Source: Laetmonice hystrix (taxonomy: Eukaryota). From it: a DNA stretch of 64,000 bases. Made by a program: the position numbers and the translations under genes. Positions 26,571 through 51,200 of the stretch are shown here, in pieces. The notes beneath the pieces are model-generated. The model saw only the letters and a list, made by a program, of their open reading frames with translations. It did no database searches and was not told the origin of the DNA. How positions within the stretch are numbered: the stretch's first letter is position 1; each line of letters starts with the position of its first letter. Where the stretch lies: contig OZ249436.1 of the NCBI GenBank assembly GCA_965235115.1, positions 1,862,001 through 1,926,000 on the forward strand. Direction: 5' to 3'.

Positions 26571-28050
26571 TTATATGCCCAGATAGGCGTGATGACGCAC
26601 CCGGAAAGGTTCATGGTCTTTTCTGGCATTTAACAAAAGTTGGCCGCAGTTCAGGGCTCTACACGCCTGGACAGCAAACATAAGACACTGAGACCCGTTC
26701 AAAACATGAGGTTCCTATAACATGAAATACTGGACATTGAGTATATAAAATATGTCAGTTTGTCCATATTAACAAAAGTTATTTTCACTCACCGCGAACT
26801 CCCGTCCATTTCCTTCTCGACCAGTAACCTTATTTCTCCTATGAGATCTTTTGTTTTGCGACTCACTGACGTGTGAAGAAATGTAAGTAGCCTAGCTTTG
26901 CCTACATGAAACATCGAGCAGGTCCCTGTCCCTATACGTATATTTAGCCATCAGGTGTGATGTTAGCTTATAAGAAAGTATGGGTGCAAAATGCCTGCAA
27001 CTTTTTACGGGTCTATAACCTATTAATTTCCAGCAGTGCTAACGTAGACATTTCACTGATCGGTTACGCTCGAAATCCAATCGGCACGTCCGAGGTCATT
27101 TCATATCCGGTTGCGAAATACCTGTTTTGCGTACGGAAAGCCCGAGATGTTGCGATCGGCTCGAAATCGTGCTTCATGCCCTAAAGCAGCTCTCGGTTCC
27201 ACCTCGAGCTCATTAGAGTATAGATCTACCCTAACCGACATGCAGTATCCACTCATGAACAGGGTGTTCTGCATCCGTAAGACTTTTACCTGAAGGTGTC
27301 CAGGGACGGGCCCCCGCGGGTAGTCCTGGGGTTGGGTGACGTCACGTTTAATGACGTTTTCGCAGGGGGTCTCCTTGAGGTTAAGTGCCCTGTGTTGCCA
27401 ATTTTAACCCCGCTGTCAACCAGGTCACCGTTACCCCTGCTGCTGCTACCAACCCTATCCATTTCCTCCGGAAGTACACTGAGTCTCTTAGTACCGGTAA
27501 CTCCCGCCAGGGTGACCCCACCGTTCAGTGACGTGAAACTGGTGGTCTGCAGTGACGTTTGACTTGCAGTTAGCAGGCCCTGTTTGTCCTGGAAACTGTT
27601 GGTGTACCACTGTCGACTCGTCTCCGGAGCACTACTAGAAACTCTTGCCGATTGACTGGGGCGTGTACACAGGAACCGCTCAAACTCGATCTTATCAAGG
27701 TTACAGAGTTGGACACGAGACCAGTCTCCAAGCAACAGAGAATGTCTACCACCCGACAGGACAAGTCTCTCGGCGTAACTCGTCACTTCCTCTGAGTACC
27801 GGAAGTGAACGTTCATCGGGACCTTCCGTTGTCTGTGCCTGTGGTTGTTGTTGTACAGGTTGGGTCTGGTGCTCCCCATGACATTACCAACTCGAGTCGA
27901 CACAACAGCATCCGGCCGGTGACGTGCCATGGACGTCCCAAAGTGAACTTTCCGGGATGGAACCGAAACATTTCCAGTTGATGTCACCGCCGCTCTGGGC
28001 GTCTTGCCTCCTATCGATGTTTGGCGTGGTTTCCCCCTGTTCATAAACAT
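26571..28050 (-). CDS. Hypothetical protein of about 325 aa, 3 coding exons, no recognisable domain
   Basis: A non-repetitive 254-codon ORF is bounded by acceptor CAG|28054 and donor AG|GTAAAA (27290). It joins in phase to exon 26865-26793 (CAG.../GTGAGT) and terminal exon 26714-26571 (TAG|EPHVLNGSQ...HHAYLGI*). AATAAA on the minus strand at 26511-26506. Confidence 0.55.
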
Positions 28051-28465
28051 CTTCCTGTTGTTGCTTTTGTATATAAATCTAATGGATTGTTGGTTTCTGG
28101 TTTCACACAGGTATTATGGTATCCTGAAGAAACATGGAGAGGAAGCCTCCAGCGCCTGGGATACAATGATTCCGATGGATTCCCTACCAAGGGGATATTG
28201 ATTCCAAGGACAGACAACCATGCGGTAACTGCAGATTTATGCCAATTTCTCAGCTGCCCGGTATCAATTAGGCTGCAGTGAATTAACTCAGTCCACCAAT
28301 CAATCGGCCCTCCCCCCTCGCCCCAACCCTCGGCCTTCGTCAGTCGACACATGGTTTGAAAGGGCACCAATCCACTTCTGGCACCAACTCCATGCAGCGG
28401 TTGAGATTGTGAAGAGAACTAATTGGTTGGCCGTTGAAATCGAAATTAATCTACGTGCCTTTGCG

Positions 28466-28924
28466 ACTTTACGCCAGCCACACATACTATAAACTTTACG
28501 CCAGCCACACATACTATAAACTTTACGCCAGCCACACATACTATAAACTTTACGCCAGCCACACATACTATAAACTTTACGCCAGCCACACATACTATAG
28601 ACTTTACGCCAGCCACACATACTATAGACTTTACGCCAGCCACACATACTATAAACTTTACGCCAGCCACACATACTATAAACTTTACGCTAGCCACACA
28701 TACTATAAACTTTACGCCAGCCACACATACTATAAACTTTACGCCAGCCACACATACTATAAACTTTACGCCAGCCACACATACTATAAACTTTACGCCA
28801 GCCACACATACTATAAACTTTACGCCAGCCACACATACTATAAACTTTACACTAGCCACACATACTATAAACTTTACGCCAGCCACACATACTATAAACT
28901 TTACGCCAGCCACACATACTATAA
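28466..28924. repeat. 27-bp minisatellite x17
   Basis: ACTTTACGCCAGCCACACATACTATAA. Confidence 0.95.
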
Positions 28925-29099
28925 AGAGAAGTAGCCTGCATGTCGTGACTGATGCCGAGTGGGCTGATACAGCAGAACTGGGACACAGTGCCGTTACATC
29001 GCCAAGGAAGTGATGCTCAGTCATCCTTTAATCTCAGGACGAACTCATTTCATTTACAGTAACGCGAAATCTATACTTTTAAAACGGACTCCTTTTCCA

Positions 29100-29152
29100 T
29101 CTCTTTGTCTCTGTCTCTCTCGGTCTCCCTATCTCTCTGTCTCTGTCTGTCC

Positions 29153-29209
<57 letters not shown>

Positions 29210-29228
29210 TCTCTCCCTCTCTCTCTCC
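29100..29228. repeat. (CT)n microsatellite
   Basis: Direct inspection. Confidence 0.9.
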
Positions 29229-29916
29229 TGCCTGTTCATTGTGTTTCATGGAGTGACTTCCTATGTTACAGGAACCATGCCAGTAGTACCCATTCCCGTG
29301 GGGTTTGGCGTACTGACTGACCACCAAACTTCACACCAGAGTGCACCTACCACACGCCAGTCCATTCTCCTCCCTATCCACGAATAGATCGACTAACGCC
29401 AAGGCAGGATGCCAACCCAACAAGAGGATGCATCTGTGCCGTTTGCTGGGCTCGTTCCCACGTGGGTTCTAATTGAATCAGATTGAGATCGAGCCCCGCC
29501 TTCAGACAAACATTTAAAACGATAGATGGCGCTAATAATGGGGCTCGGTGCTGACATCTTGACCACCAGAGGGCTCCAGCAGTCCAAAGACAAATCTCAC
29601 TGGTCCTCTGCTCAACAGGAGTTGAGCAGGGGACCAGCCATAAGACAAATCTCCGTGATTTTGAATGGGCAACATTCGGGAATGTTCGGTTCTTTTCGTC
29701 AGACCGTAAAATGGGATTCATTTAATCGCCGTTTGATGTCAGACTAAAACATAATGCGGAAATATAACAATAGGTGGCGCCACCACCATGGCTGAGGTAG
29801 GCCTAGCCATGTCGTGTTAAAGTAGGTCTATCATATAGACGAACAACCAAGAAAAGGAATTAAACGTTATTATTAAATAGCAAAGCATAGTCCGTAGCAA
29901 AAAGAAACATATGTGC

Positions 29917-30473
29917 TGAAGCCATAGATAGAGTTTAAACAATGCATTCACTGTATCGGTTTCCAGACAGATGTGTTAACAGATCTGATGAAGCCATAGA
30001 TAGAGTTTAAACAATGCATTCACTGTATCGGTTTCCCGATGTGTTAACAGATCTGTTGAAGCCATAGATAGAGTTTAAACAATGCATTCACTGTATCGGT
30101 TTCCAGACAGATGTGTTAACAGATCTGATGAAGCCATAGATAGAGTTTAAACAATGCATTCACTGTATCGGTTTCCCGATGTGTTAACAGATCTGTTGAA
30201 GCCATAGATAGAGTTTAAACAATGCATTCACTGTATCGGTTTCCAGACAGATGTGTTAACAGATCTGATGAAGCCATAGATAGAGTTTAAACAATGCATT
30301 CACTGTATCGGTTTCCAGACAGATGTGTTAACATATCTGATGAAGCCATAGATAGAGTTTAAACAATGCATTCACTGTGTCGGTTTCCAGACAGATGTGT
30401 TAACATATCTGATGAAGCCATAGATATAGTTTAAACAATGCATTCACTGTATCGGTTTCCAGACAGATGTGTT
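29917..30473. repeat. 68/72-bp tandem repeat x8
   Basis: GAAGCCATAGATAGAGTTTAAACAATGCATTCACTGTATCGGTTTCC...GATGTGTTAACAGATCTG. Confidence 0.93.
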
Positions 30474-30785
30474 AGAATCACATTGCCCTTCAATAAGCAA
30501 ATGCAGCAATATCGTTTTGCGAATTTTACGAATTGATCACCGCCCCCAACTTTCAACCATTCTCCCAGGTTGGTAACAGACGCTTCTGGTGACCTAATCA
30601 CGATATCGTATCATTGTATAATCATTGATGATAATGATGTAACCTTGAAAATATAAATTAATCTTTTAATTACAAAATGTATATCAGATCATGATGAATA
30701 TTTAGACACAAACTCAATAGAAAATCAAAAATGGTGCGTTGCAGAGCTTACACTCCTTTTATAACACAAGACATGGGAAATGTGA

Positions 30786-30989
30786 TTTAGATCCGCTGTA
30801 CGGTAGATCCTGTGTTTTAGATCCGCTGTACGGTAGATGTTTTAGATCCGCTGTACGGTAGATCCTGTGTTTTAGATCCGCTGTACGGTAGATCCTGTGT
30901 TTTAGATCCGCTGTACGGTAGATCCTGTGTTTTAGATCCGCTGTACGGTAGATCCTGTGTTTTAGATCCGCTGTACGGTAGATCCTGTG
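30786..30989. repeat. 30-bp tandem repeat x7
   Basis: TTTAGATCCGCTGTACGGTAGATCCTGTGT. Confidence 0.92.
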
Positions 30990-31080
30990 ATTCGTGTTTA
31001 ATTTATTCCAGTTCCTTCTCAGAACGGGAATGACTATGCCGCCCTAGCGAAGAAAGTGGGAACCAAACTATGTGCCGCCT

Positions 31081-31441
31081 CAGGCCCGTAGCCAGCCTTC
31101 CAGGTGGGGGGGGGGGTCTGGACTTCGATGGGCGGAACAAGGTATGGTTGGTCTAGGACAGGGCCGTAGCTAGAAATTTCTGAGTTGGGAGGGGGCAGTC
31201 ATGGGTGGATCCAGGAGAAGGCGAAGGCTCCAAGACATGAGCGGGGGGTCTGGGGGCCCTCTCCCAGAAAAAAATGGAAATTACAGGGCCAAATACGCGT
31301 TTTCCTGGCATCTGGGAAATAAATCCAAGGTTTTCCAGAGCCTATCCAGCACTAAAGGGTGGAACAAAATCTTAGGGATGGGCAACTGGGGGGGGGGGGT
31401 CGTCCGACCCCCCCGACCCCTCCCCCCTGGCTACGGGCCTG
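31081..31441. mobile_element. hAT-like MITE
   Basis: 15-bp TIR CAGGCCCGTAGCCAG / CTGGCTACGGGCCTG, poly-G/C tracts, and a second left-end-like copy at 31159. No clear TSD. Confidence 0.6.
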
Positions 31442-33175
31442 CGCCTATAAATACGACCATGACGTCATCGCCCTCGAGGACACCATTCTCGGCATTCTCA
31501 CCTGTCAGGGTCGACGCATGCGCACCCGCCACGTAGTCGGAGGATCTCGCTCGCAAGCCGATAAAATCATCTCGGGTGGTAGCCTGGTTCCCCTGCCCGC
31601 CGCTCCGCTCCTTGGCGCCAGTTCGCATGTGTGGGTTTGTGTATCCTCTTCCGGACTGTACGTGGAAGCAAACATTAAGGCCAGGCATAACTGACAGTTC
31701 GGTTTACGCGCCCGCTGACTCTAGCTATCCAAAATTTGAAGGGTAAAAATATATTAGGCCAATTTTATTTTCTCCCTGACAACGATGCCTGTTTCATGTT
31801 ATTGATGATGTTCGCGAAAGCGATGCCTAACGAAAAGTGCAGAAAATATCTCTTTCAGCAGTTTGTTAGATACCATTCGTAGCTTTCGTGAAAACAACGT
31901 TTGGGGGTCTGGAGACAAATAATAAATAGAGGATAACAAATATTATCCAGCTACCGGTGAGGTCACAAAAGTTATCATTGCTACCGGAAGTCACGTGATC
32001 CAAAGAATTGCAAGTTTTCAAACAGGGTATCTGTTCATCTAAAATGTTTTGTCTATAGCCTACACTATATTACCTGAAACACTGGACTGTAAAGGCCCCT
32101 GCACATTGACCCGACCCAGTCGGTTCGAACGGTGTGCGGCGACCTTACAACCTGAAAACTTTGGACCCATATATATAGATCTAATGGGGGGAGAGCTTAG
32201 CGCTATAACCCTGAATGATTTCTTTTTACCGCCGCCGACATTGGTTTCTGTAGCCTATAAATGTTATCGTAAAGCGAACTTTCACATAATGTTTGGTCTC
32301 TAACCTAGGCCTACTTCACGGTCTGCTGATCCGGACAGGGATCGGATCATGATTCTGTATCCGGTAAGACCTATACAAATATGTCTGGTCAGTGCGTCAC
32401 GACGTCACAACTATAAACACGTGCGTGTTTCACCAGAAATGACACATGCCGGAGGCGCAGACGATCTATATTCTGTATTGACACATGGGGCTGCAAGTAC
32501 ATATTATACTATTCACCGACCCACTATACCCAGATAGCTGAGGACGACCAGACTAGGTGTAGCCTAGGTACGCCGGCCTGTGCAGGTGAGAGCTTTAATG
32601 GGGTCGACGGCCTTGCCGTGGATGGAGATTAGAGAATATGGAAGCGGTGGCCACTCGCTCGGCGATGTACGTTGTATTTAACGACAATCGCGTTAAACGG
32701 TTATAAATTCTCACCCCTTTCATTCAGGGGTTTTATATGTGGCTCGACGTCGTAGTGGGTCATCATAGTCAGACTCGCCACCGAGAAGACGAGATGGGTC
32801 ATTCTCAGAAGGGGGTGGCGTGGTGAAACTTCTAGGGGTGACCCACCCCGGGTAGGGCCTATACACTGTACCTCACTGTTTTTGGAACTGTGTATGTAGG
32901 GAAGCGGGGCAAAACGGTTATATGGGGGTAAAATGGGAGTTCCTTACAGCTTTAAAACCAGTGCTGCCATCTTCCTGGTCCAATGATAACCTACAAACAA
33001 GCACATAGGCTATAGTTTAAATCTAATGTCTCAACATACCTATCCTTCTCGAATTTTCTACCGTGGAGACAAAACAGTCTCTTCTTCAACTGGGAGGAAA
33101 ACCAGATATTCTAACTCTGTGAAGTCCGACACAGGGGAGTTCTCCATTTTCGGCACCGCGGCACCACGCGAGTCT

Positions 33176-33838
33176 GGGGCCGGTTTTACTAAAGGTCGAT
33201 AATAACGACGTCGATAATTTACCATGGAAGTGGTAATATCGAGATCACCACAAAATGTTTTCTCTGAAACGAACGCGATTAACTGGAAATTACCACTTAG
33301 TGACGTCATCAAGTCGTAATAACGAGTTAATGACGTCACTAAGTGGTAATTTCGAGATCACCACAATTTTATTTTCTCTGAACGCGATTAACTCGTAAAA
33401 ACGACTTAGTGACGTCATCAGGTCGTAATAACGAGTTAATGACGTCACTAAGTGGTAATTTCGAGATCACCACAATTTTTTTTTTCTCTGAAACGAACGC
33501 GATACTCGAAATTACCACTTAGTGAAGTCATTATGTCGTAATAACGAGTTAATGACGTCACTAAGTGATAATTTCGAGATCACCACAATTTTATTTTCTC
33601 TGAACGCGATTAACTCGTAAAAACGACTTAGTGACGTCATCAGGTCGTAATAACGAGTTAATGACGTCACTAAGTGGTAATTTCGAGATCACCACAATTT
33701 TTTTTTTCTCTGAAACGAACGCGATACTCGAAATTACCACTTAGTGAAGTCATTATGTCGTAATAACGAGTTAATGACGTCACTAAGTGATAATTTCGAG
33801 ATCACCACAATTATCGACTCTTTAGTAAAACAGGCCCC
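33176..33838. mobile_element. MITE with internal tandem repeats of about 110 bp
   Basis: TIRs GGGGCCGGTTTTACTAAAGGTCGATAAT / ATTATCGACTCTTTAGTAAAACAGGCCCC. Internal units carry repeated TGACGTCA. Confidence 0.75.
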
Positions 33839-34089
33839 TATTGTTGTCTACATCCGGGCCACTGGTCCCGACCTAGCCACTGACCCCCCCCCCCCCCCCC
33901 CCCCAACACGGCGACCTCCGTCGTACAGCCGAGACGGGACGACAGTCAGTTGAAGGTGTGCCGAGTGATATCTCATACTGCAGCCGGAAATTGTTCGGCC
34001 TACACGCCTATATGGTTGACGTAACCTCGTAACCGTATAGGCCTACATCCGGCAGGGGTGCATGTCTTAGCCTACTTTCCAGACGTTTC

Positions 34090-34446
34090 TATATTTTCCT
34101 GACTTTCCTATATTTCCCTGCCTTTCCTGTAGATTTTCCTGACTTTCCTATATTTCCCTGCCTTTCGTATTTTCCTGATTCGCCTATATTTCCCTGCCTT
34201 TCCGGTATAATTATTTCCCTGCCTTTCTTGTAGATTTCCCTGCCTTTCCTATGGATTTCCCTGCCTTTCCTATAGATTTCCCTGCCTTTCCTATGGATTT
34301 CCCTGCCTTTCCTATAGATTTCCCTGCCTTTCCTATAGATTTCCCTGCCTTTCCTATAGATTTCCCTGCCTTTCCTATGGATTTCCCTGCCTTTCCTATA
34401 GATTTCCCTGCCTTTCCTATAGATTTCCCTGCCTTTCCTATAGATT
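34090..34446. repeat. 21-bp pyrimidine-rich minisatellite
   Basis: TAGATTTCCCTGCCTTTCCTA. Confidence 0.92.
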
Positions 34447-34753
34447 ACAGTTACTTGGAGGGAGATTCTCACGACGGAGGTTATAGGGTATGTGGGGCTA
34501 CATATATAGAAATAGGGATAGAATTATAGTTACATGTATAAGCACTAATATCATGAAGATGTTATGCATGGGGTTATTACGGTCCACTCCCCAACCCCCT
34601 ATAGCCAGCGTTTTCTGTTTGACACCCCCCCCCCCCTCCCTTTCTAAAATCCTGAATCCGCCTTTAAAAATATTCTTCAATCAATTGTTTTTTCTTCCTT
34701 TCTCTGCAGATATTGTATGCGATCCTGTTAAGTTGCTGTAAAACACAAAGATC

Positions 34754-35209
34754 ATGGGAGATTTCGACTGCGGTGGTTGTGACTGCGGAGACTGCGGTGG
34801 CTGTGACTGCGGAGACTGCGGAGACTGCGACTGTCAATGTGACGAGTGTAAATGTCCTGAGTGTGACTGCTGTGACTGCTCCACGTGGACTTGCTGTCAG
34901 TGTGACGGTTGGACGTTTTTGGGGTGTTGTTTGTATGGTTGTGGACCGTCGTGGACCGACTGCTGCCGGGACGATAGTTGGAAGAGAAACCGAAGGCAGC
35001 AGGAGAACGGGTCCTCGGCCACGGCCAGGGATGTCATCCTTGTCAGTCAAACACCTATCATCGACACAGAATCTGGTCGGACATGTCAACCTAACCAAGT
35101 CAACTTCAGTAACGGTCAGGTGGCCAGGGAACCGACGGCACCGCCTTCGTATGAGGAGGCCGTTCAGTTGGGTCCAGCAGCTGGGTCGTCTGCTGGCACA
35201 GGCCTGTAG
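34754..35209 (+). CDS. Uncharacterised 151-aa Cys/Asp-rich (metallothionein-like N-terminus) protein with a PTAP/PPSY motif
   Basis: Strong acceptor tttcttcctttctctgcag|34710 and an in-frame upstream TAA at 34739. Kozak context atcATGG. 24 Cys in the first 71 aa (CxC, CxxC, CC), and EPTAPPSYEEAV near the C-terminus. Candidate 5' exon ends at GCAG|GTGAG (32585); AATAAA at 36244. Confidence 0.7.
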   Translation: MGDFDCGGCDCGDCGGCDCGDCGDCDCQCDECKCPECDCCDCSTWTCCQCDGWTFLGCCLYGCGPSWTDCCRDDSWKRNRRQQENGSSATARDVILVSQTPIIDTESGRTCQPNQVNFSNGQVAREPTAPPSYEEAVQLGPAAGSSAGTGL

Positions 35210-37069
35210 ACTAACATCGACTAACAGCCTACAGAGTCCCATCTACAACCTCTGCTCACCGTTTTGCTCAGTGTTTTCATTTTTTGGGTGTTTTTCCGCG
35301 GGCTTGCTCGCCATGAGCACGCCTCATGGGAAAAAGCAACCAAAAAAAACACGAAAACGGTGAGAATGAGCATGCTCACCCTTGCTCAGCTCAGCTCACC
35401 CTTGCTCACGGTGGAAAAGTAAACCAAAAAACCGGGCCCTGGTCTAACTGACAGCTCTAACCGATGACAGCTCGGGCTATACTGAACCAGTCTGCGAAAA
35501 AAAATGGTTGCTAAATGGGAGGGGGGGGGTTAAGGGAAGGTTAACCCCCCTACCCCCTCCCCCCGATCCGGCCACTGGGAGTAATAACCAGCTTTGGATA
35601 GTCTACTATTGCGTTCTCTCCACGCGCAGCTTCTCCTGTGAGGCCAAGAACATCTCAAAGTTCCCGCAGCTAAGATATTATAGGCCTACAATGTGGCACG
35701 TTTTGATCAGCATATGGTAGGCCTACTATTGCGTTCTCTCCACGCGCAGCTTCTCCTGTGAAGCCAAGAACATCTCAAAGTTCCCGCAGCTAAGATATTA
35801 TAGGCCTATACAATGTGGCACGTTTTGATCAGCATATGGTAGGCCTATTAGCCTACAGTAGGCTTAATGCATTTCGTATTTTGTGCCCCCAGTGAGTTAG
35901 GTCTACTGACTCTACTGGCCTACGACCCTAGCTGTCAAAGGAAAAAAGCCCGACTAGTAGGCCCCCTAGGCCTAGATCTAAGCCACAATGCGGTAGGCCT
36001 ATGCGGGGCCTTAGATCTATGCTATGTGATATATATTGTACAGTCATCTTTACTAGTCTACTGTTTAAATCCTGATAGCAGATTTTAAATGTTATAATAT
36101 TTTGAAGCAATATTGTTTTATGACTTATAATGATCTGTCAAACAGAAGAAATGTCCCCCTTAGATGGTCTACAACTTAACCATTTGTACGGAGAGTGCAA
36201 TGAAGAAAGTGGTTTCCTTTCGGCTAAAGCATTTTCTACAACGAATAAACATGTTTTATGAGTTTTGGAATGAGTCTTTGTGTGCCGTTAATTATTTCCG
36301 ACTATGTTTTCCTCAGTTTTACTGGGCTCTAGTGTAGAATGAAGCTGACCAATTGCAGCTGGGCCCAGTTTAAGCTTGAAGTTACACTAAAAATTCCTCA
36401 GATAGTTTACATTTGGACCCCAGGGGACCTTGTTAAAATTTCAGGGTCGAGCCACAGATCTAAGCTTACTGAATTGACCGTGCTGACCCCCCCCCCCCCC
36501 CCCCCCCCCATCCCATTATAGGCTCGCGCTGAAATTTAAAAGGTTGTAGCCGCTCTGGCTGTCCATACAAATGTATGGATTAGCCACACATAGTTGGGAT
36601 TAGCCACACTTCTCCACTTGTGTGTTCGGAAAAGCAGGGCTGTCAAAAGTAGCCGGTCAGCGGCGGCAAAACGCCGTCTAAACCCAGTTTTGCAGCCGCC
36701 TACTTTTTGTTGAATGACAAAAAAATCTTTTAAACAATGTTCTTTTTTCACTTTCACTTGTTTCACTTTCCTGAACGTTTAGGCTACAGGATCCCATTCC
36801 ACAGAGGGAAAGAGAAGAGGGGCAATCTATCGGATCGTTGTGATTGATCTTCTCTTCTAAACTTTTCTATTTCTAGATGGCCCGGTTTTGTGACTCAAGG
36901 TTTGTGGACACCACGAACGGTGTTTTCTTACACAGAGGCACATTTCCAGACAGGATATCTAAAGAGGCCCGTTAATCGTTATGTCAGTGTTGGGAGGACG
37001 CCTTTTAGATGATATCGGAGTTGTTTTACGCACTGATTTTCCGTACTTGAGATTTGGAATTAACTTTTA

Positions 37070-42285: not shown

Positions 42286-45200
42286 CTACAACTCATTCTT
42301 GTCCTTTTTGCTTGCTTTCTTCTTTCCAGCCTTTGTAAAGTGTTTAAGGCCATCTGTAGCCTCACGGGCAAGGAACTTGATGAAATCTTCTACTTCACGG
42401 GCAGACTGGAAAAAAAACACAAGCAGCTACTTGTAGAATTTATTCAAATTATAAATAAATGGGGCTCCTCAATTTACCCCTATGACATTGGGTAAAGGGA
42501 GAGAATGGGTAAAATCAGAAATCAAAGAACCCATAGTCATACACATAGACATACTCACCTCATACTTGCTTGGAGAATCCTTGCTTCCCTTGGGGGCAAA
42601 GAATATTGTAGGGAACCTTGAGAAAACAAGCAAAGGTCATCATAAAGTTCTGTAAGTTACCTCAGGGGTAATACACATGTACTGAAACAGAGAACCGTTT
42701 TAGCAGGAAGAAGCACTGATAGCACCGGTGCTAGGCAACTGCACTGAGTTAGAATACATCTATTAATTAATTTGTGGACTTGTGACAGACATTTCACAGC
42801 CAAAATAATGAATAAGCTCTAAATTTGATGACCACACTTCATGTGAAACGAGACTTCAGTCTGCTATTTTATCGGGGCTTTGAGTTGCCAAAATCCTAAT
42901 TTTGCGTCAATTAATCCTAATGGAGTAATGATTACCCCAAAACTGTAATCATTACGCCAAGTTCTTACTGGTTGGCATCTCTGTTTCCTTATCTATCTGA
43001 GCATTTACAACGAATGTACATCATTTAATACGAAAAAATGATAACAAGTCAGAACTTACCCTCTGACATCATATGGGCTTGGTACATCGTTAGCTGTGGC
43101 ATCCATCTTGGCAATCACAATGTCGGTTTCTGCTTGAAGCTGGTTGAAACAATTGAAATAATCCATCAATACATACCCCCACCTATGTCAGTTCAAGTAA
43201 ACCCATCAATACATACCCCTACCTATGTTAGTTCAAGTAAATCCATCAATACATACCCCTACCTATGTTAGTTCAAGTAAATCCATCAATACATACACCT
43301 ACCTATGTTAGTTCAAGTAAATCCATCAGTACATACCCCTACCTATGTTAGTTCAAGTAAATCCATCAATACATACCCCTACCTATGTCAGTTCAAGTAA
43401 ATCCATCAATACATACACCTACCTATGTTAGTTCAAGTAAATCCATCAATACATACACCTACCTATGTCAGTTCAAGTAGGGCCTTTATCACATTTTTTT
43501 ATTTATATGCTAAGGATTTGTTTAAGAATAGACCTTAACAATTTACTATGTGCAGTTTGACTCATCTTTAAATCAGAGTTGGGGAGTTTTACTCACCTTC
43601 TCACCCAGCTCCTCATATTTAGGAGCAAGGCTCTTGCAATGCCCACACCAGGGGGCGTAAAATTCAATCAAAACGTCTTTAGTGGGATCATTGACAATCT
43701 CATCAAAGTTCTCCGCGACGACAGTCTGTCAATAAAACAGCATTCAAATATTAGCACTTTTTTCTACGCTAAGATTTGCCATTAAAATTTTCATTTTTAA
43801 TACCATTAGTTTCACCTCTTAGATTTAAATCACATTATAGCATGAATATATAGCCTGTAATAACAAAACAAAATATTAAGAGAGAAACTCACTTTAACTG
43901 GTCCGTCATTATTCTCTGGAATTGGTTCTGATTTCAGATATGGCTTCAAGTTGCCATCAAGGAGATCGTTAACAAATTTCTCCAGGTTTTCCATGGAGAA
44001 TTCCTCCTTCATCACATATTTCTTATCGGATGAATCTTTGGCTGCGATAACAGGTTTGTCACTCGGAGAGTCGATGCCAAACTCAGACAGCTCCTGCCCA
44101 AATTCATCCTTGCTTGCAACGGCAAAGTACACTTTCTTTCCCTCATCAACAAGTTTCTTGCCAACTTTCATAACCCTGCAACAAATGGAAGGCAGCATTT
44201 AATATGGACATAAAATGGTTTCAGATCACACAATCGGTCGCTGATAACTTTCTCAGACATGTGGATCCCTGACATAACGAGTGAAACTTTTTCAATATTC
44301 CAATTTTCCTGCGTACCATGCACAGGTAATGTTATCTCGAGTCTATTTTTCTACGGTATTCAAAGCAGATTTTGCTGACGTCACATACCGGTTCCTCCAG
44401 TAGTTGGTGCCTTTGACATTCTTCACATAGTCGACATCGTAGTAGGCAGTCACCAAGGGTTTCTGGAACTGGTTCTGGTTACTCGAGGTTCGGTGTCCTG
44501 CCAAACCATGTCTGCAGCAAAACAGCCAAACTTACCATAACATGAAGATGGTGTACATTCTCAAAGGACTAAAACTACAAAATTTAAACTTAGTTCAAAG
44601 TTGATTTAAAACTAAAAAAATCTTTTCAAAAAACTTCCTTGAATCAAAGATCTAGCTTTAGTTCCTTTAACTCTGCTCTAGATATCTCCCCCATGAAGTC
44701 AGAGGTGTCCTAATAAAATGAACATCAATGCTCATAGAGATAACACACTTGTAATGCTGGGGTGCGTTTCTCTAAGGAAAGATGTCTTTGCACAAAGAGT
44801 CTTTCAAACTCTAGAAACTCTAGAGTCTTTTGGGCTTAATAGAAACGCACCCCTTGAAATTTATGTTGAGTATATCTAGAAATATTTATTTTCAAAGCCA
44901 GAGTACTCTGTCCTAAAAATACTCAAATATCTCTGCAAGGCCTACTAAGGACACCTTATTATTTTTTTATTTTTGTACTTACGCATTATCTGTAATGAAG
45001 GACTTGATCTTGGAGAGTGTGGCCTCGCCATCATACTTCACTTGTTTATCTTCAAACTTGGATTGTAGACGTTTGGGCCGGAACAACATAACGGTGCTGC
45101 AATACGTTAAAATCCACATTTAGTTTATCTCATGTGCTGATAAACATTACTGCAGAATATGTTAGCTTATAGGTTGCTCGAGAGAGTACAGCTGAACCTC

Positions 45201-48200
45201 TGGTCTGCTCAGTATTTTGTTTAGAAACATGACTTACTTTTTGCCATATTTTTCTAGAGCGTCTGCGTTGTATGTGTGGCCAAACTTATGATCTTCATTG
45301 AGCGCATCAGCAGCTTTCTGGAACTCTTTCCCCAGGTCACTGCCTTCCGACTCAAACAGGCCTGAACAACACAAAATCAAGTTGCAATTGTAGGTCAGTT
45401 TAATGTCTTAAAATGGCATTTATGTCAGCCACAAACACTGGCAAATCATCTTAAACCCAGAGTCATACTTCAGACACTGGATACGACTAAGTAGTAAACC
45501 AGCATAATGTGTATTGGCAAGTAACACTTGCCAAATATTCTTATGGCACAATTTCTCATTAATTATATTACTTGGGTAATTAGTAATTTTACAGTTTGGT
45601 ACTAGATAAACAGCAACTTAAGGTAAAATTTCCACAATCTTCAGAAGCAAATATTTCTTTCACTCACCAACAAAAGCATTATCAAATCCACCAATGAACT
45701 TCTCAAGTTCCTCTACAGATTTCAGTTCCTTGGAGCTCGGTCCCGCCTTGGACTTCATGTGCTTAACAATACCATCTGAAACATAAATAACCAAACTGAT
45801 TGGTGTCCAGTAACCTCCACAGTTCTTCTGTTACACTCATCTTACTAATGTACATGTACTCCTACCATACCTAGATTTTCTTTTGTTGATCAAAAATACA
45901 TATATACCTGCCTGTCCCAATATTCATGTACTTACAATAGGCCATCCCCTTGTGGCCAAAAATATAACACTAAAAGTATATAATAACTGGCAGTGTGACC
46001 ACTGAATTTAGGTAACTCTTTGGTCTCTGGTTACTTACTTAAAAAAATTAAGACAGAAAACTGGATACAAAACGGGGGTTTCTCTACCTAGTTCAAGCAA
46101 AACCTGCTTTCAATCTCTGCCACAGTGCCAGTGTCTAAAGCCCATGTCCACAGTCACTGGGACTTCTAGTTCGACACACCGCCGTGGTCTTTCTGAGTTA
46201 TGTATGATCATCGGGCTCGATGGGGCTATAGACATGCTCAGCCTTGGTTACCAGTGAAACAAGTTCCCCTTTTGTCCTCTAGTTGCATGGCAGTTGGCAC
46301 ACGTCTTTCTGACAAATACTTTCGTAATTCTTTTACTGCCGCTAAGCCATGACTCACTGAACCGAAAGAAGCAACGACTGGTGCCACCTAGCAGCCTTGG
46401 CGTGAACTAGATTAGGGAAACCCCCATATTGATGTTGGTTACAAAGAATCACATCAGTAAAATGATAAAGTCCACCAGAACACAAGGGCAGACACAGATG
46501 ACAATACAACATGCTACCTGTCCCACAAACATACAATACCGCGACGATTCACGGCAGGTCATTATAAAAATCTAAAGAAGGTCAGTAAACACTTTACAGA
46601 TAACCAGAATACACAGAATCTTATCATCAGGAAGTTCGTGGAAATTGTTTCCTGGACTCGATACTGGATTCACCGAGTTACTAGTTTCAAAAACACTCAG
46701 GCCTACTAAATATATTATAACACACGTGTAACATTTGTAAATGTATGCGTAAAAATTCTCAATGTGTGATATAGAAATAATCAGCTTTCTATGCTCATAC
46801 CAGGAGTTCAGAGGATTTTTGCTGTTTGAAACCGGTGAAATTTTTTTGAGCATAGGAATGGCTGTCATAGACTGTTACTCCCTTGCCTGTGGCCTTTACA
46901 ACCACGGGACATTTTACAGCACATTGTAATTTGTGAATGCTTGGAGACTTTAATATCACAGACTGATGTGTTCAGTATACAGTCCACCAGTGAGAGGTTA
47001 GTGGCTACTGATGTGTGTTAAACACAAGGTGTGTTAAACCACAAAGTGTGTTAAACCACAAGGTGTGTTAAACCACAAGGTGTGTTAAACCACAAGGTGT
47101 GTTAAACCACAAGGTGTTAGGGCTCCCATCCTGGTCCATGAGTGTCTAAAGGTCCAGAGGGTTTCGTGGGGCACATCCTCTTACCCCTGACATGTGTTAA
47201 ACCACAAGGTGTTAGGGCTCCCATCCTGGACCATGAGGAGTGTCTAAAGGTCCTGAGGGTTTCGTGGGGCACATCCTCTTACCCCTGACGTGTGTTAAAC
47301 CACAAGGTGTTAGGGCTCCCATCCTGGACCATGAGGAGTGTCTAAAGGTCCTGAGGGTTTCGTGGGGCACATCCTCTTACCCCTGACGTGTGTTAAACCA
47401 CAAGGTGTTAGGGCTCCCATCCTGGACCATGAGGAGTGTCTAAAGGTCCTGAGGGTTTCGTGGGGCACATCCTCTTACCCCTGACGTGTGTTAAACCAGT
47501 TAAACCACAAGGTGTTAGGGCTCCCATCCTGGTCCATGAGGAGTGTCTAAAGGTCCTGAGGGTTTCGTGGGGCACATCCTCTTACCCTTATTACGGGGAC
47601 CCTCGTACTCGCTGGCATCCATGCCATAGTATCCCTTTCTGAAAACATGGAGTGTGGGGAAGCCCTCAACGCCGAGCTTTTTACAAGTTTGGTGGCCGGC
47701 CCCCTGACAATCAACCTACACAAGGTGGAAAAATTTATCAAACTTAATGAAATGTTTAGATACTTCTCCCTGAACCAGCAATCCTAACATCTGCTACAGC
47801 TTCTTTCACACACAGCTTTAGTAGGACCAACACCAAAATACACGTCAAGAATTCCAATGACATTGCTGACTGGATTCGACTAATCAAGGCTCATTCTGTT
47901 AATTTCTAACTAATCAGAATATTGCAGTAGCTTTAAGTTAGGAATTCAACACAATATTTTGGTGTTAGTAACGCCTACATCTACCTGAAATGTTAGGTGC
48001 ATTAGCTTCCTGGAAAAGAAGGGCTTTGTGTCCAAGAGGTAAGAGTCCAAGCTTCTGTTTCTAAAAAATAATGAGTATCAGTGCAAGTCAAGCATAAAGA
48101 TTACATTCCCGAATAAATCTTCTGCCACACTTTTCATGGCCTCTAAATTTAAACTATTCAAACAGTCAAAAAAAGAAAGTTTAAAATGCTCAATAAATGT

Positions 48201-51200
48201 TAAATGTAAATTTTGTTTGCACCTCATTACAATGGAAGAACTCACAGATCGTAACAAGTTTTCAAATACGACATAAGAAAGTTATTCGAGGCTGTAATGT
48301 CAGAAAGTTATTCGGGGATGTAATCTTAGAAAGTTATTCGGGGATGTAATCTCTATAGTAAAGTCTCTCGGAGAGTTCTAACACTACCAGGTACATCTCC
48401 TGGTCACTGCCTCCAGCCTCCATACCTGCTTGCCTAGGCCCATTGTAGTCCTCGGACTGTTCACCATTTCTGAATATTTTCAGGGTGGGATATCCTGACA
48501 CACCATACTTTCCACAAGCCTTGGTATTAGCTGTGCAATCAACCTAGAACACAGAAATAACACTGTATAGGAAATCATACCAACTACAAGGTGAGACAAA
48601 ATAAAGGATTGGTTAAGGAATATTTAAACGGTCCACATGCACTTATTCTTTTTTTAACTTTTTTATATTTAAATGTTTTCTTTTTCAGAATCATGCCATT
48701 CTTAGTTTTTCCAATCAGCAGCTCTTTCCATTTAACATGGAAAGGTTCTTCATCTCCTATTCAAATGAGCAAGCATACTGAATCATTAAGATGTAATTTT
48801 ATTGAACCCTCATGAACATATTCATGAGCCAGTGTAGATCTAGACACCAAAGGTGGTGATAGATTCACAAGTAGATTCACTTGAGTGATTTCATCAATAA
48901 ATCTAAGGCAGGCGAGAATGGGCTGCCTTTAAGTAACGACTCGACTTCCTGGCTTCACGCTCGCTAAGATCAAAGAGAGCTATGGGAGTATGAGAATTAG
49001 ACACATCTCAGACCATTGGGAGGTTAATAAACATCTGGACAGTGGAGCAACCCCTGATGTTAGGTTTCTAAACACTGTCACAACAGGCAAACATTGTTCA
49101 CAAACACAGTTTATTACATGAAGAGGATCACTCTCCATACAAAGTAATCCCACTATCATGTTAGATGATTATTCCATGGTTAACATATAATGTTAATACT
49201 AAGTGAGTATTTCCATTATATGAAAACATACTCCCCGAGGTAATGGATTATCGGGCTGGTCACCCATCATCCACCAACTTTATGAGTTATCATTTACATA
49301 TTGATCATACCAAGAGACAACTCCATCCAGTCTAGTACTTCCTACTTCAACATTCCCAACAGTACATCTCTTTATTACTTCCACTGGCTGTGAATATTGT
49401 GTCAGGAATTATAGTCGTATCAATACAACATTTGCATTCAAACAGATTATTCTCAGCAACATGGCAAGTGGTTTGTACACTTACCTTTGCGAGGGCAACA
49501 GGTGGGTCGTTACTCCTCAATGTAGTCGCTGCTGATTCATACTCAGGGGCGAGCTTTTTACAATGACCACACCTGAAGTCAAGAAAACGTATCTTTAGGT
49601 TGATGGTCAGATTCAAACTGCTATACAATCCAAATATACTTCAAGAAGTCAGGATTGATTCACAAAGATTTCATGGCTGCCAACTTTTATATATGCTGAT
49701 ATAGCTGTGGATTAATCTTACTTGTTTTGGATCCAGAACATTCATACAGGTCTATTAACCTTATCACAATTAACAGGTGTGGAACAGGTGAAACAGCATC
49801 AATGATAATCAGTTTTTAACTCAGTGCACTTCATGGTTTTTACAACACAATTATTTATCTCAGGTGTCAAAATTAAGGATTTTCCCACAGAAGCAGATAA
49901 TTGCTTTCGAAAATAGGTTTTACACTTCAGGGAAGCAATTCATGCTTAGGGAAGCAAATTGCTCCATTGCTTCTGATAATTTCGATCCCTGCATCTTTAT
50001 GCAACTCCTGAATTCCTAGGGTCACAGATGACCAAATACAATAGATCATTACCAACTCTGGATATGAGAATAGAAAACAAAGAAGGTTTGCATAATTGAT
50101 CAGATGTCCGAAAGCTGTTGATCTCAACAGCTGCACATCTGAACCCACACAACCAGGTGGTGCATTCCTGTCAGTTGTAACTTGTAACAAACCATTGGTT
50201 AAATGAATGGAGGACAGGTGTGTCACTACATCATACATGGTTCGTTCAGACACTAAATCAAACCACACGAGTTCCTTGTCTAAACACACTGACGTGAAAC
50301 AATTGATCTACTCAATCAATTCAATGACAAGTGGTCAAATAATGCTCAATAAAAAAACACTTAAATTTATGCAGAAATTAATATTAAGATCTGAATAGTA
50401 ATCCATTTCCTGTGTACACTGATTAAATTAATGCCCAGGCCTATACCATTCCAGTATGTAGGCCTACAGGCCTAGTGCTAGCCATACCATTCCAGTATGT
50501 ACAGGCCTAGCGCTAATACTAGAGATTAATGTCAAACTGGACTTTTCCATCAACAGTCACACATTCAATCACACCACAAGACAAGGCACAATGATCAGGA
50601 ATGAGAAAAGGTATAATTTCTCAATTCTTTAAAAAAAAAAGTTTCCCGTTCTTCATTTAAAAAAAGATAAACCCTCACTTAGGCGTATTTGTATTGTCTT
50701 CGCTAATATGTAAATCATCAGCCAAGTGGCAAATAAAACATTTTTGTTTCCTTGCCCTTGGCTCGAGACCAGATAATTGGCCAAATTACTAAGTTAGTCA
50801 GTATCTAGGAAGTTGGCTACCTGGCTATATTTATCTTTATTAATAAGTTTTTCTTAACTTTCATGAACTATTTTTATGACTTGCATGCAATTCACACATT
50901 TTGAAGGGGGGGTGCAACATTAATATTCTAAAATAATCTGGCAAAAAGGGGTTCAAGTGAACAAAATATATTAGGAATTTAGAATAAACAAAAACAAAAA
51001 CAGCTGTAGTCGAAACTGACAAAATTGTCTCAAATAAAAAGCAGGGATGGGGGGGCACGCTGTACTGTAGATCTAAACTTAGGCAGAGAAATGTGCGTAA
51101 AGAACCCAACCCGAGACTGCATGTTACTTCTGAGTAGGCCTACTGAGTACTGTCCAAATTAAGCAGCATTGGCATTGGGTCCTGTTGTTGCGCGACACAC

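Follow-up and report, generated by a model that had tools for sequence, protein, structure and literature searches.

The locus and its gene model

The window that we analysed, a 64,000-nucleotide stretch of contig OZ249436.1 from the annelid Laetmonice hystrix, is repeat-rich animal DNA (93 tandem-repeat rows) and carries on its + strand a single-exon coding sequence at 34754..35209 which, by open reading frame translation, encodes a protein of 151 amino acids. Its ATG at 34754 stands in a strong start context, with A at -3 and G at +4. The original prediction had put this protein at 34710..35209; the protein is present, but its coding sequence starts at 34754, position 34710 being only the first base after a splice acceptor that ends at 34709, and the frame at 34710 itself encodes something else. 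A search of the 627-Mb genome found one copy of the gene and no paralogue of the 151-residue protein. No other ATG-started frame of at least 80 codons, in any of the window's six reading frames, has 20 or more Cys in 71 residues or the motif PPxY[EDS][ED][AV], and neither feature arose in any of 300 block-wise shuffles of the window.

The acceptor, a polypyrimidine tract and AG at 34687..34709 (+), has 18 pyrimidines in 20 positions and by pyrimidine content ranks in the top 2 among 1925 YAG sites of the + strand. The candidate donor (32583..32591, +; exon end at 32585) scores highest of the 357 GT sites within 28100-34700, on an approximate donor matrix. The junction from 32585 to 34710 named in the original prediction is a candidate from sequence, with a TATAAA at 32412..32417 (+), which has CRE-like words just upstream, as candidate promoter of a non-coding first exon. 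Between acceptor and ATG lie a four-codon upstream open reading frame, out of frame with the coding sequence (34717..34731, +), and an in-frame stop codon (34739..34741, +); the latter sets the N-terminus at the next ATG, so that an upstream exon cannot supply a leader through this acceptor. The first AATAAA downstream (36244..36249, +) is a candidate polyadenylation signal.

The presumed 3′ UTR, outside the protein, contains a high-copy palindromic MITE-like repeat (35250..35445, no strand given), recognised from its hairpin fold and from a summed contig depth that reaches about 1e6, compared with some 45 over the coding sequence. This element begins some 40 nt past the stop codon, has a hairpin z of -3.4 and is matched by thousands of look-alike contigs. 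Four runs of one sample gave five allelic differences in the coding sequence (2 silent, 3 changing), all within aa 81-112 and too few for a selection test; contigs of that sample span the presumed intron and are thus uninformative on splicing. Perfect CRE palindromes number 18 in the window against 1 expected and, being scattered over it, are not specific to this gene; a 113/222-bp tandem array at 33228-33812, in the presumed first intron, holds eight of them and the rest lie elsewhere.

Exons of a PDIA3/ERp57-like protein disulfide isomerase at 43833-49640 (-) are convergent with the gene, and are probably a chance neighbour. On the other side, a 275-codon open frame at 27289-28113 (-) ends at a splice donor, has no Pfam match, and is likely to be the first coding exon of a divergent neighbour. 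Elsewhere the host genome encodes Lox5, Lox4 and Lox2-type homeodomains with their flanking peptides and many intronless innexins; it also has two homeobox tandem arrays of near-identical copies at a spacing of about 3.3 kb (about 14 at G000:C4:18.75-18.82 Mb and about 10 at C4:22.89-22.93 Mb). The mitochondrial contig has its long genes all on one strand, in the order cox1-N-cox2-D-Y-cox3-Q-nad6-cob-W-atp6-R-H-nad5-F-E-P-T-nad4L-nad4, and its non-coding region (G000:C35:1-2050) consists of about four repeats of a unit of about 512 bp. The Lox homeodomains, the innexins and this mitochondrial arrangement indicate an annelid host; searches for bindin, haemocyanin and haemerythrin came back empty and added nothing.

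Architecture of the protein

The translation confirms the 24 Cys in 71 residues that had drawn attention to this locus: they lie within residues 6-71, with one further Cys at position 111, and make Cys 16.6% of the whole protein and 34% of aa 1-71. The highest 19-residue Kyte-Doolittle mean is 0.69, which indicates neither a transmembrane helix nor a signal peptide, as had been predicted; with the N-terminus fixed by the in-frame stop, this places the Cys residues in the cytosol.

The head has two parts. Residues 1-43 (34754..34882, +) form an acidic Cys/Asp/Gly block of 16 Cys, 13 Asp plus Glu and a single Lys, which is conserved in homologs and is a candidate metal-thiolate region. Residues 44-71 (34883..34966, +) contain 8 Cys (including three CC pairs) and 5 aromatic residues, an aromatic-Cys patch that most homologs share; if yeast CYSPD proteins and hepatitis E virus (HEV) ORF3 are taken as analogues, this part would fit an S-acylated or monotopic membrane anchor. 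The first part is too acidic for a membrane anchor and so would be the better metal candidate of the two. A short basic patch follows the last CC (aa 72-84, 5 Lys plus Arg; 34967..35005, +). The predicted N-terminus does not suggest a myristate anchor: none of 15 family N-termini fits the N-myristoylation consensus (PROSITE pattern), and Gly2 is replaced by Ala or Ser in five.

In the tail, VILVSQTP at aa 94-101 (35033..35056, +) is a variant of an [VI]xxQP motif that most homologs share and that the LITAF genes of this genome also carry. The overlapping PTAP/PPxY described in the original prediction is also present, as PTAPPSY at aa 127-133 (35132-35152), followed by EEAV; the whole element PTAPPSYEEAV (aa 127-137; 35132..35164, +) runs from the overlap into an acidic helix. 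In the AlphaFold model (pLDDT 44.5 overall, below 50 across aa 1-120, no fold given) the PY motif and its helix at 133-137 are the sole confident part, the remaining tail being disordered. The ESM Atlas gave no usable match for the query or the Photinus member. A search of PDB sequences with alignment A1 gave nothing at E up to 1, and what further PDB searches returned, at E 0.2-10, was weak and at the level of motif or composition, including PPSYEEAV, letter-identical in an adenovirus protein VI chain (E 0.23, a motif-level match and not homology). Residues 112-151, modelled without alignments in complex with a WW domain of this genome, scored 0.27, short of the 0.34 needed to read the model either way.

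Homologs and conserved motifs

Four protein searches gave 27 distinct matches. The same order of parts as in the query is seen in two Mytilus species (M. galloprovincialis and M. coruscus), Ostrea edulis, Plakobranchus ocellatus, Elysia crispata, Photinus pyralis and Abscondita terminalis, and in unnamed records; all are annotated as hypothetical or uncharacterized, except the oyster protein, which is labelled 'keratin-associated protein 5-6-like'. P0005, which headed the all-protein search, comes from bacteria and is a repeat protein; it was rejected as a false match and dropped from the alignments, but is kept among the 27. Five matches with the Cys/Asp head only (P0021, P0024, P0025, P0026, P0029) and one with a degenerate motif (P0014) were excluded from profile A3 and from the leave-one-out set. 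P0025 and P0026 combine the head with a WWWWCC patch and basic residues and have no PPxY; P0025 was not found in viral or prokaryote contigs. The three Abscondita members, P0006 (KAF5280877.1), P0016 and P0030, occupy adjacent loci, of which P0006 is extended by a transmembrane segment that brings a second PPPY and may be a fused gene model; the M. galloprovincialis members have four consecutive accessions (VDI83288-91).

Conserved across the family are the N-terminal M[GA]DxDC Cys/Asp block, the aromatic-flanked Cys patch (although two of three gastropod members miss the pattern we used), [VI]xxQP, and PPxY-[ED][ED][AV]. PPxY[EDS][ED][AV] and an M[GAS]D..DC start are each present in 20 of the 27 matches, and a loose [VI]xxQP pattern in 21, counts that run too high because mussel-type records recur in near-identical form (about half of the 20) and because the search profiles themselves contained the PPxY. 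In the 14 single-unit PPxY-bearing homologs tabulated, the motif lies 12-36 residues from the C-terminus. Head repeat number differs among alleles and species.

The overlap itself, which the original prediction took as the defining feature, is not shared. P[ST]AP occurs in 3/27 matches, where it adjoins PPxY twice and never overlaps it as in the query: PSAP directly precedes PPSY in the slug-like Elysia P0022 and in P0028/P0057, and stands 32 residues upstream of PPxY in the beetle P0016. It is absent from the other 24, which include every bivalve (where TxQ stands before PPxY), Plakobranchus and Photinus. The expected co-conservation of head and tail motif thus holds for the Cys/Asp head and PPxY, found together in molluscs and beetles, and not for PTAP. 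Since PPxY is conserved and P[ST]AP is not, the core signal would be a NEDD4-family WW ligand and the overlapping late domain a lineage-level extra; we read P[ST]AP as an optional accessory that strengthens this signal and that some lineages have acquired or retained.

Among six bivalve-like members (15 pairs), mean identity is 0.73 in the head, 0.36 in the linker and 0.70 in the PY region. Head and PY region thus show roughly double the identity of the linker, a profile of the kind left by purifying selection at the protein level. The groups of a family tree match taxonomy, an agreement that is partly circular as the unnamed rows were labelled by similarity. Pfam has no family for the query, and over 15 aligned members gave one weak TMEM51 match, in a single member (E 0.1). 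A full-text literature search, including accession and locus names, found no description of the family; supplements and most subscription papers fall outside such a search, and expression tables may carry members under locus ids or keratin-like labels. A scan of JGI metagenomes with A3 returned 396 pattern matches, none confirmed.

One family or shared composition

The family sequences are of low complexity, and for this reason residue order was tested against composition. A profile of 13 homologs, built without the query, scores the query at 69.6 bits, a value reached by none of 300 shuffles in each of four shuffle types (maxima -7.5, 22.0, 46.4 and 59.9 bits). Taken alone, the query tail was equalled by 0/500 plain and 0/500 doublet-preserving shuffles, and the head by 0/500 and 3/500 respectively. 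Mollusc-only profiles placed three of four beetle heads and three of four beetle tails above all 200 doublet shuffles.

These sequences could instead have several origins, as independent low-complexity Cys/Asp proteins that each acquired the common PY motif. Cross-phylum scores are indeed weak, at -7.5 to 47 bits between beetle and mollusc profiles and just 3.6 bits for the query on a beetle-only profile; BLASTP gave no alignment between the query and the slug homolog P0028, and one of the four beetle heads does not beat its doublet shuffles (49/200 reach its score). Moreover, the head profile gives about 50 bits to the unrelated membrane proteins P0024 and P0029 and 82 bits to the PY-less P0025, so that the head occurs in other settings too. 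The shared M[GAS]D..DC start (20/27), the single length class, the constant order of the four parts and the success of the mollusc-only profiles on beetle heads and tails all speak against separate origins, which we consider very unlikely. We regard the annelid-mollusc link as firm, and the link of the beetle proteins to annelid and mollusc members as probable, on these comparisons of sequence. By the same evidence this is a real, conserved gene of an unnamed family in three animal phyla, which is missing from Pfam and receives from automated annotation either no name or a wrong, keratin-associated one.

A candidate NEDD4 adaptor and its alternatives

Our best reading, to which we give a probability of about one half, is that the gene encodes a small cytosolic member of a protostome-wide unnamed family, probably an S-acylated NEDD4 adaptor or substrate, LITAF/CYSTM-like with reversed modules, and with an acidic thiolate block that may bind metal. 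It retains the membrane-tethered adaptor idea of the original prediction. The PPxY is conserved and lies in a disordered region that is predicted to be cytosolic, as is expected of a NEDD4-family PY ligand; the PPSY of Ad5 protein VI, according to PMC2841620, binds Nedd4.1/4.2 and supports ubiquitination; and the host genome has the partners, with two WW+HECT loci and a TSG101-like UEV gene. Together these points suggest that the family could be read as cytosolic, lipid-anchored NEDD4 adaptors or substrates bound for ESCRT. Precedents for Cys-anchored PY/PSAP proteins are described for LITAF (PMC5095921), yeast CYSPD proteins (PMC10840359) and HEV ORF3 (PMC6307819).

We suggest that, on the conserved architecture seen in the homologs, with a fast-changing linker between Cys head and PY tail, the PPSY would bind WW domains of the host's NEDD4/WWP-ITCH ligases, as established motif biology predicts. 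The aromatic-flanked CC pairs and basic patch could be S-acylated or inserted in one leaflet, bringing the protein to the cytosolic face of plasma membrane or endosome, where it or a neighbouring cargo would be ubiquitinated and then sorted by ESCRT; in this annelid, some slugs and a beetle, P[ST]AP might add a direct TSG101 contact. Most tentatively, the acidic CxC/CxxC block may bind Zn/Cd/Cu or serve as a redox or metal switch. The strong acidity of aa 1-43 (13 Asp plus Glu to 1 Lys) is a counterpoint to the membrane-anchored reading, being unfavourable for membrane binding.

That same block could belong to a soluble metal chelator, a functional metallothionein (MT) of new type in which the PY tail acts as a degron, routing the metal-loaded protein to proteasome or lysosome. 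We think this possible, though not probable. The CxC/CxxC spacing and the content of 16 Cys with 13 acidic residues over 43 aa speak for such a chelator, whole-protein Cys content is inside the 15-30% stated for MTs in PMC7826182, a source which also reports de novo origin of new MT domains in molluscs, and there are tandem copies in M. galloprovincialis (VDI83288-91) and in Abscondita (three adjacent loci). However, the six mollusc MT domain motifs (alpha, beta1-3, gamma and delta; Table 1 of PMC7826182) are all missing from the query and gave no strict and one loose match in 20 sequences, the set being molluscan; no Pfam MT family matched any of 15 members at E up to 10; the 80-residue tail is poor in Cys; and metal-response elements are not enriched in the window (22 against 35 expected) and form no cluster near the gene. 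Earthworm MT control, as presented in PMC4427108, may not depend on such elements. The metallothionein-like head of the original prediction thus stands as a matter of composition, and not of MT motif or family. A union of chelator and adaptor, in which a membrane-tethered protein takes up Zn/Cd/Cu in its acidic head and is then led by its PY (plus P[ST]AP) tail, via ubiquitin and ESCRT, into multivesicular bodies, metal granules of the lysosome or vesicles that are secreted, seems to us distinctly doubtful.

Two further proposals give different weight to tail and head. A dedicated vesicle-budding factor, with the PTAP+PPxY pair as its core as in viral matrix proteins or ARRDC1, would explain the perfect PTAP overlapping PPSY in the query, the recurrence of the motif in three phyla (Elysia P0022, P0028/P0057 and the beetle P0016) and a layout logic that matches HEV ORF3 and arenavirus Z; it is improbable given that 24/27 matches are without P[ST]AP, that the Pro/Ser/Ala-rich flanks of PPxY would let P[ST]AP arise easily, and that all 15 N-termini lack the myristoylation pattern. 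A structural, disulfide-cross-linked protein of keratin-associated or sperm-tail type, using PPxY for turnover only, would agree with the NCBI label of the oyster member, with the variable head repeat number and with an AlphaFold model that gives no fold over aa 1-120 (pLDDT below 50). We attach little credence to it: the keratin-associated Pfam family is absent from the 15 members, Cys is limited to the first half of the protein, and this genome has a single copy of the gene. A disordered tail with short linear motifs that are conserved is, besides, typical of trafficking proteins.

How cytosolic metal reaches lysosomal granules in bivalves, snails and worms is a question to which the family, if its head binds metal, would offer a testable answer. 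If the metal-export proposal were true, a single protein would take metal from its capture in the cytosol through to sequestration or excretion in worms, molluscs and beetles. Existing metal-exposure RNA-seq is a cheap test for the mussel and oyster members.

Comparison with known systems

The query belongs to no Pfam family and lacks the domains of LITAF, CYSTM and keratin-associated proteins, in agreement with the original prediction that it falls in no named family. Keratin-associated protein 5 is recognised by Pfam repeats with Cys along the whole chain, and such repeats were found in none of 15 members, the oyster protein of that label included. WBP1/VOPP1/Shisa-like PY proteins, which combine an N-terminal Cys-rich part and PPxY tail with a signal peptide, a Cys domain on the luminal side and one transmembrane helix, resemble the query in the first two respects but in none of the other three, and membership of WBP1/VOPP1, raised in the original prediction, is not supported. 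Metallothioneins resemble the head in Cys density and CxC/CC spacing, whereas the query is Asp-rich, has aromatic residues and carries a long PY-motif tail; at 151 residues, with one Cys in its last 80, it is also unlike MTs in size and domains, which are mostly under 100 residues and made of Cys domains and short linkers only. The scallop Cd-binding protein described in PMC12357810 is a different protein. As a whole, the combination of an N-terminal acidic Cys block with PTAP/PPxY is one that we could not place in any known system.

Among the systems closest to our preferred adaptor reading are LITAF/SIMPLE and CDIP1 (zf-LITAF-like, PF10601), which are likewise small and without signal peptide, have both ends cytosolic, and carry P[ST]AP and PPxY in a disordered arm, N-terminal in LITAF and C-terminal here. 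Human LITAF presumably has the same PTAP/PPxY-type overlap. The order of modules is reversed, the anchor being C-terminal in LITAF and the Cys region N-terminal in the query, which has 24 Cys and an acidic block in place of a 22-residue hydrophobic stretch between two Cys knuckles. Neither Pfam nor hhalign finds a LITAF domain in the query (compared by hhalign with three LITAF exons of this genome, it gave a probability of 0.07), and the true LITAF genes sit elsewhere in this genome. Their exons (L013, L015 and L016) have VVxQP-type motifs like that of the family; endosomal PY proteins may here share a short linear motif that has gone unrecognised. PMC5095921 describes LITAF as using PSAP and PPxY for TSG101 and ITCH/NEDD4, with a Cys-rich monotopic membrane region that binds zinc.

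CYSTM/CYSPD proteins, as described in PMC10840359 and PMC2804304, are of 60-150 residues, with a Cys-rich end that is palmitoylated rather than transmembrane, a PPxY in one yeast member, Rsp5-dependent turnover and links to metal stress. However, their 5-6 Cys lie in a C-terminal module of 35-40 residues after a Pro/Gln-rich N-terminus (PMC2804304, PMC10840359), whereas those of the query are N-terminal and four times as many, and with no CYSTM match in Pfam for the query or 15 members, membership of CYSTM, raised in the original prediction, is not supported.

By layout alone, with no sequence relationship claimed, HEV ORF3 and arenavirus Z are similar in that a lipid anchor and Cys-rich region at the N-terminus are combined with a flexible C-terminal arm that bears the late domains (PMC6307819, PMC11278674, PMC3509680), although ORF3 has 8 Cys and PSAP only, and Z has a myristoyl-Gly and a RING. 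An overlapping PTAP/PPxY is documented in Ebola VP40 and some arenavirus Z proteins (PMC3509680), so that the motif pair is not in itself new. If the adaptor reading is true, what would be new is the architecture, among the few known Cys-anchored NEDD4/ESCRT adaptors.
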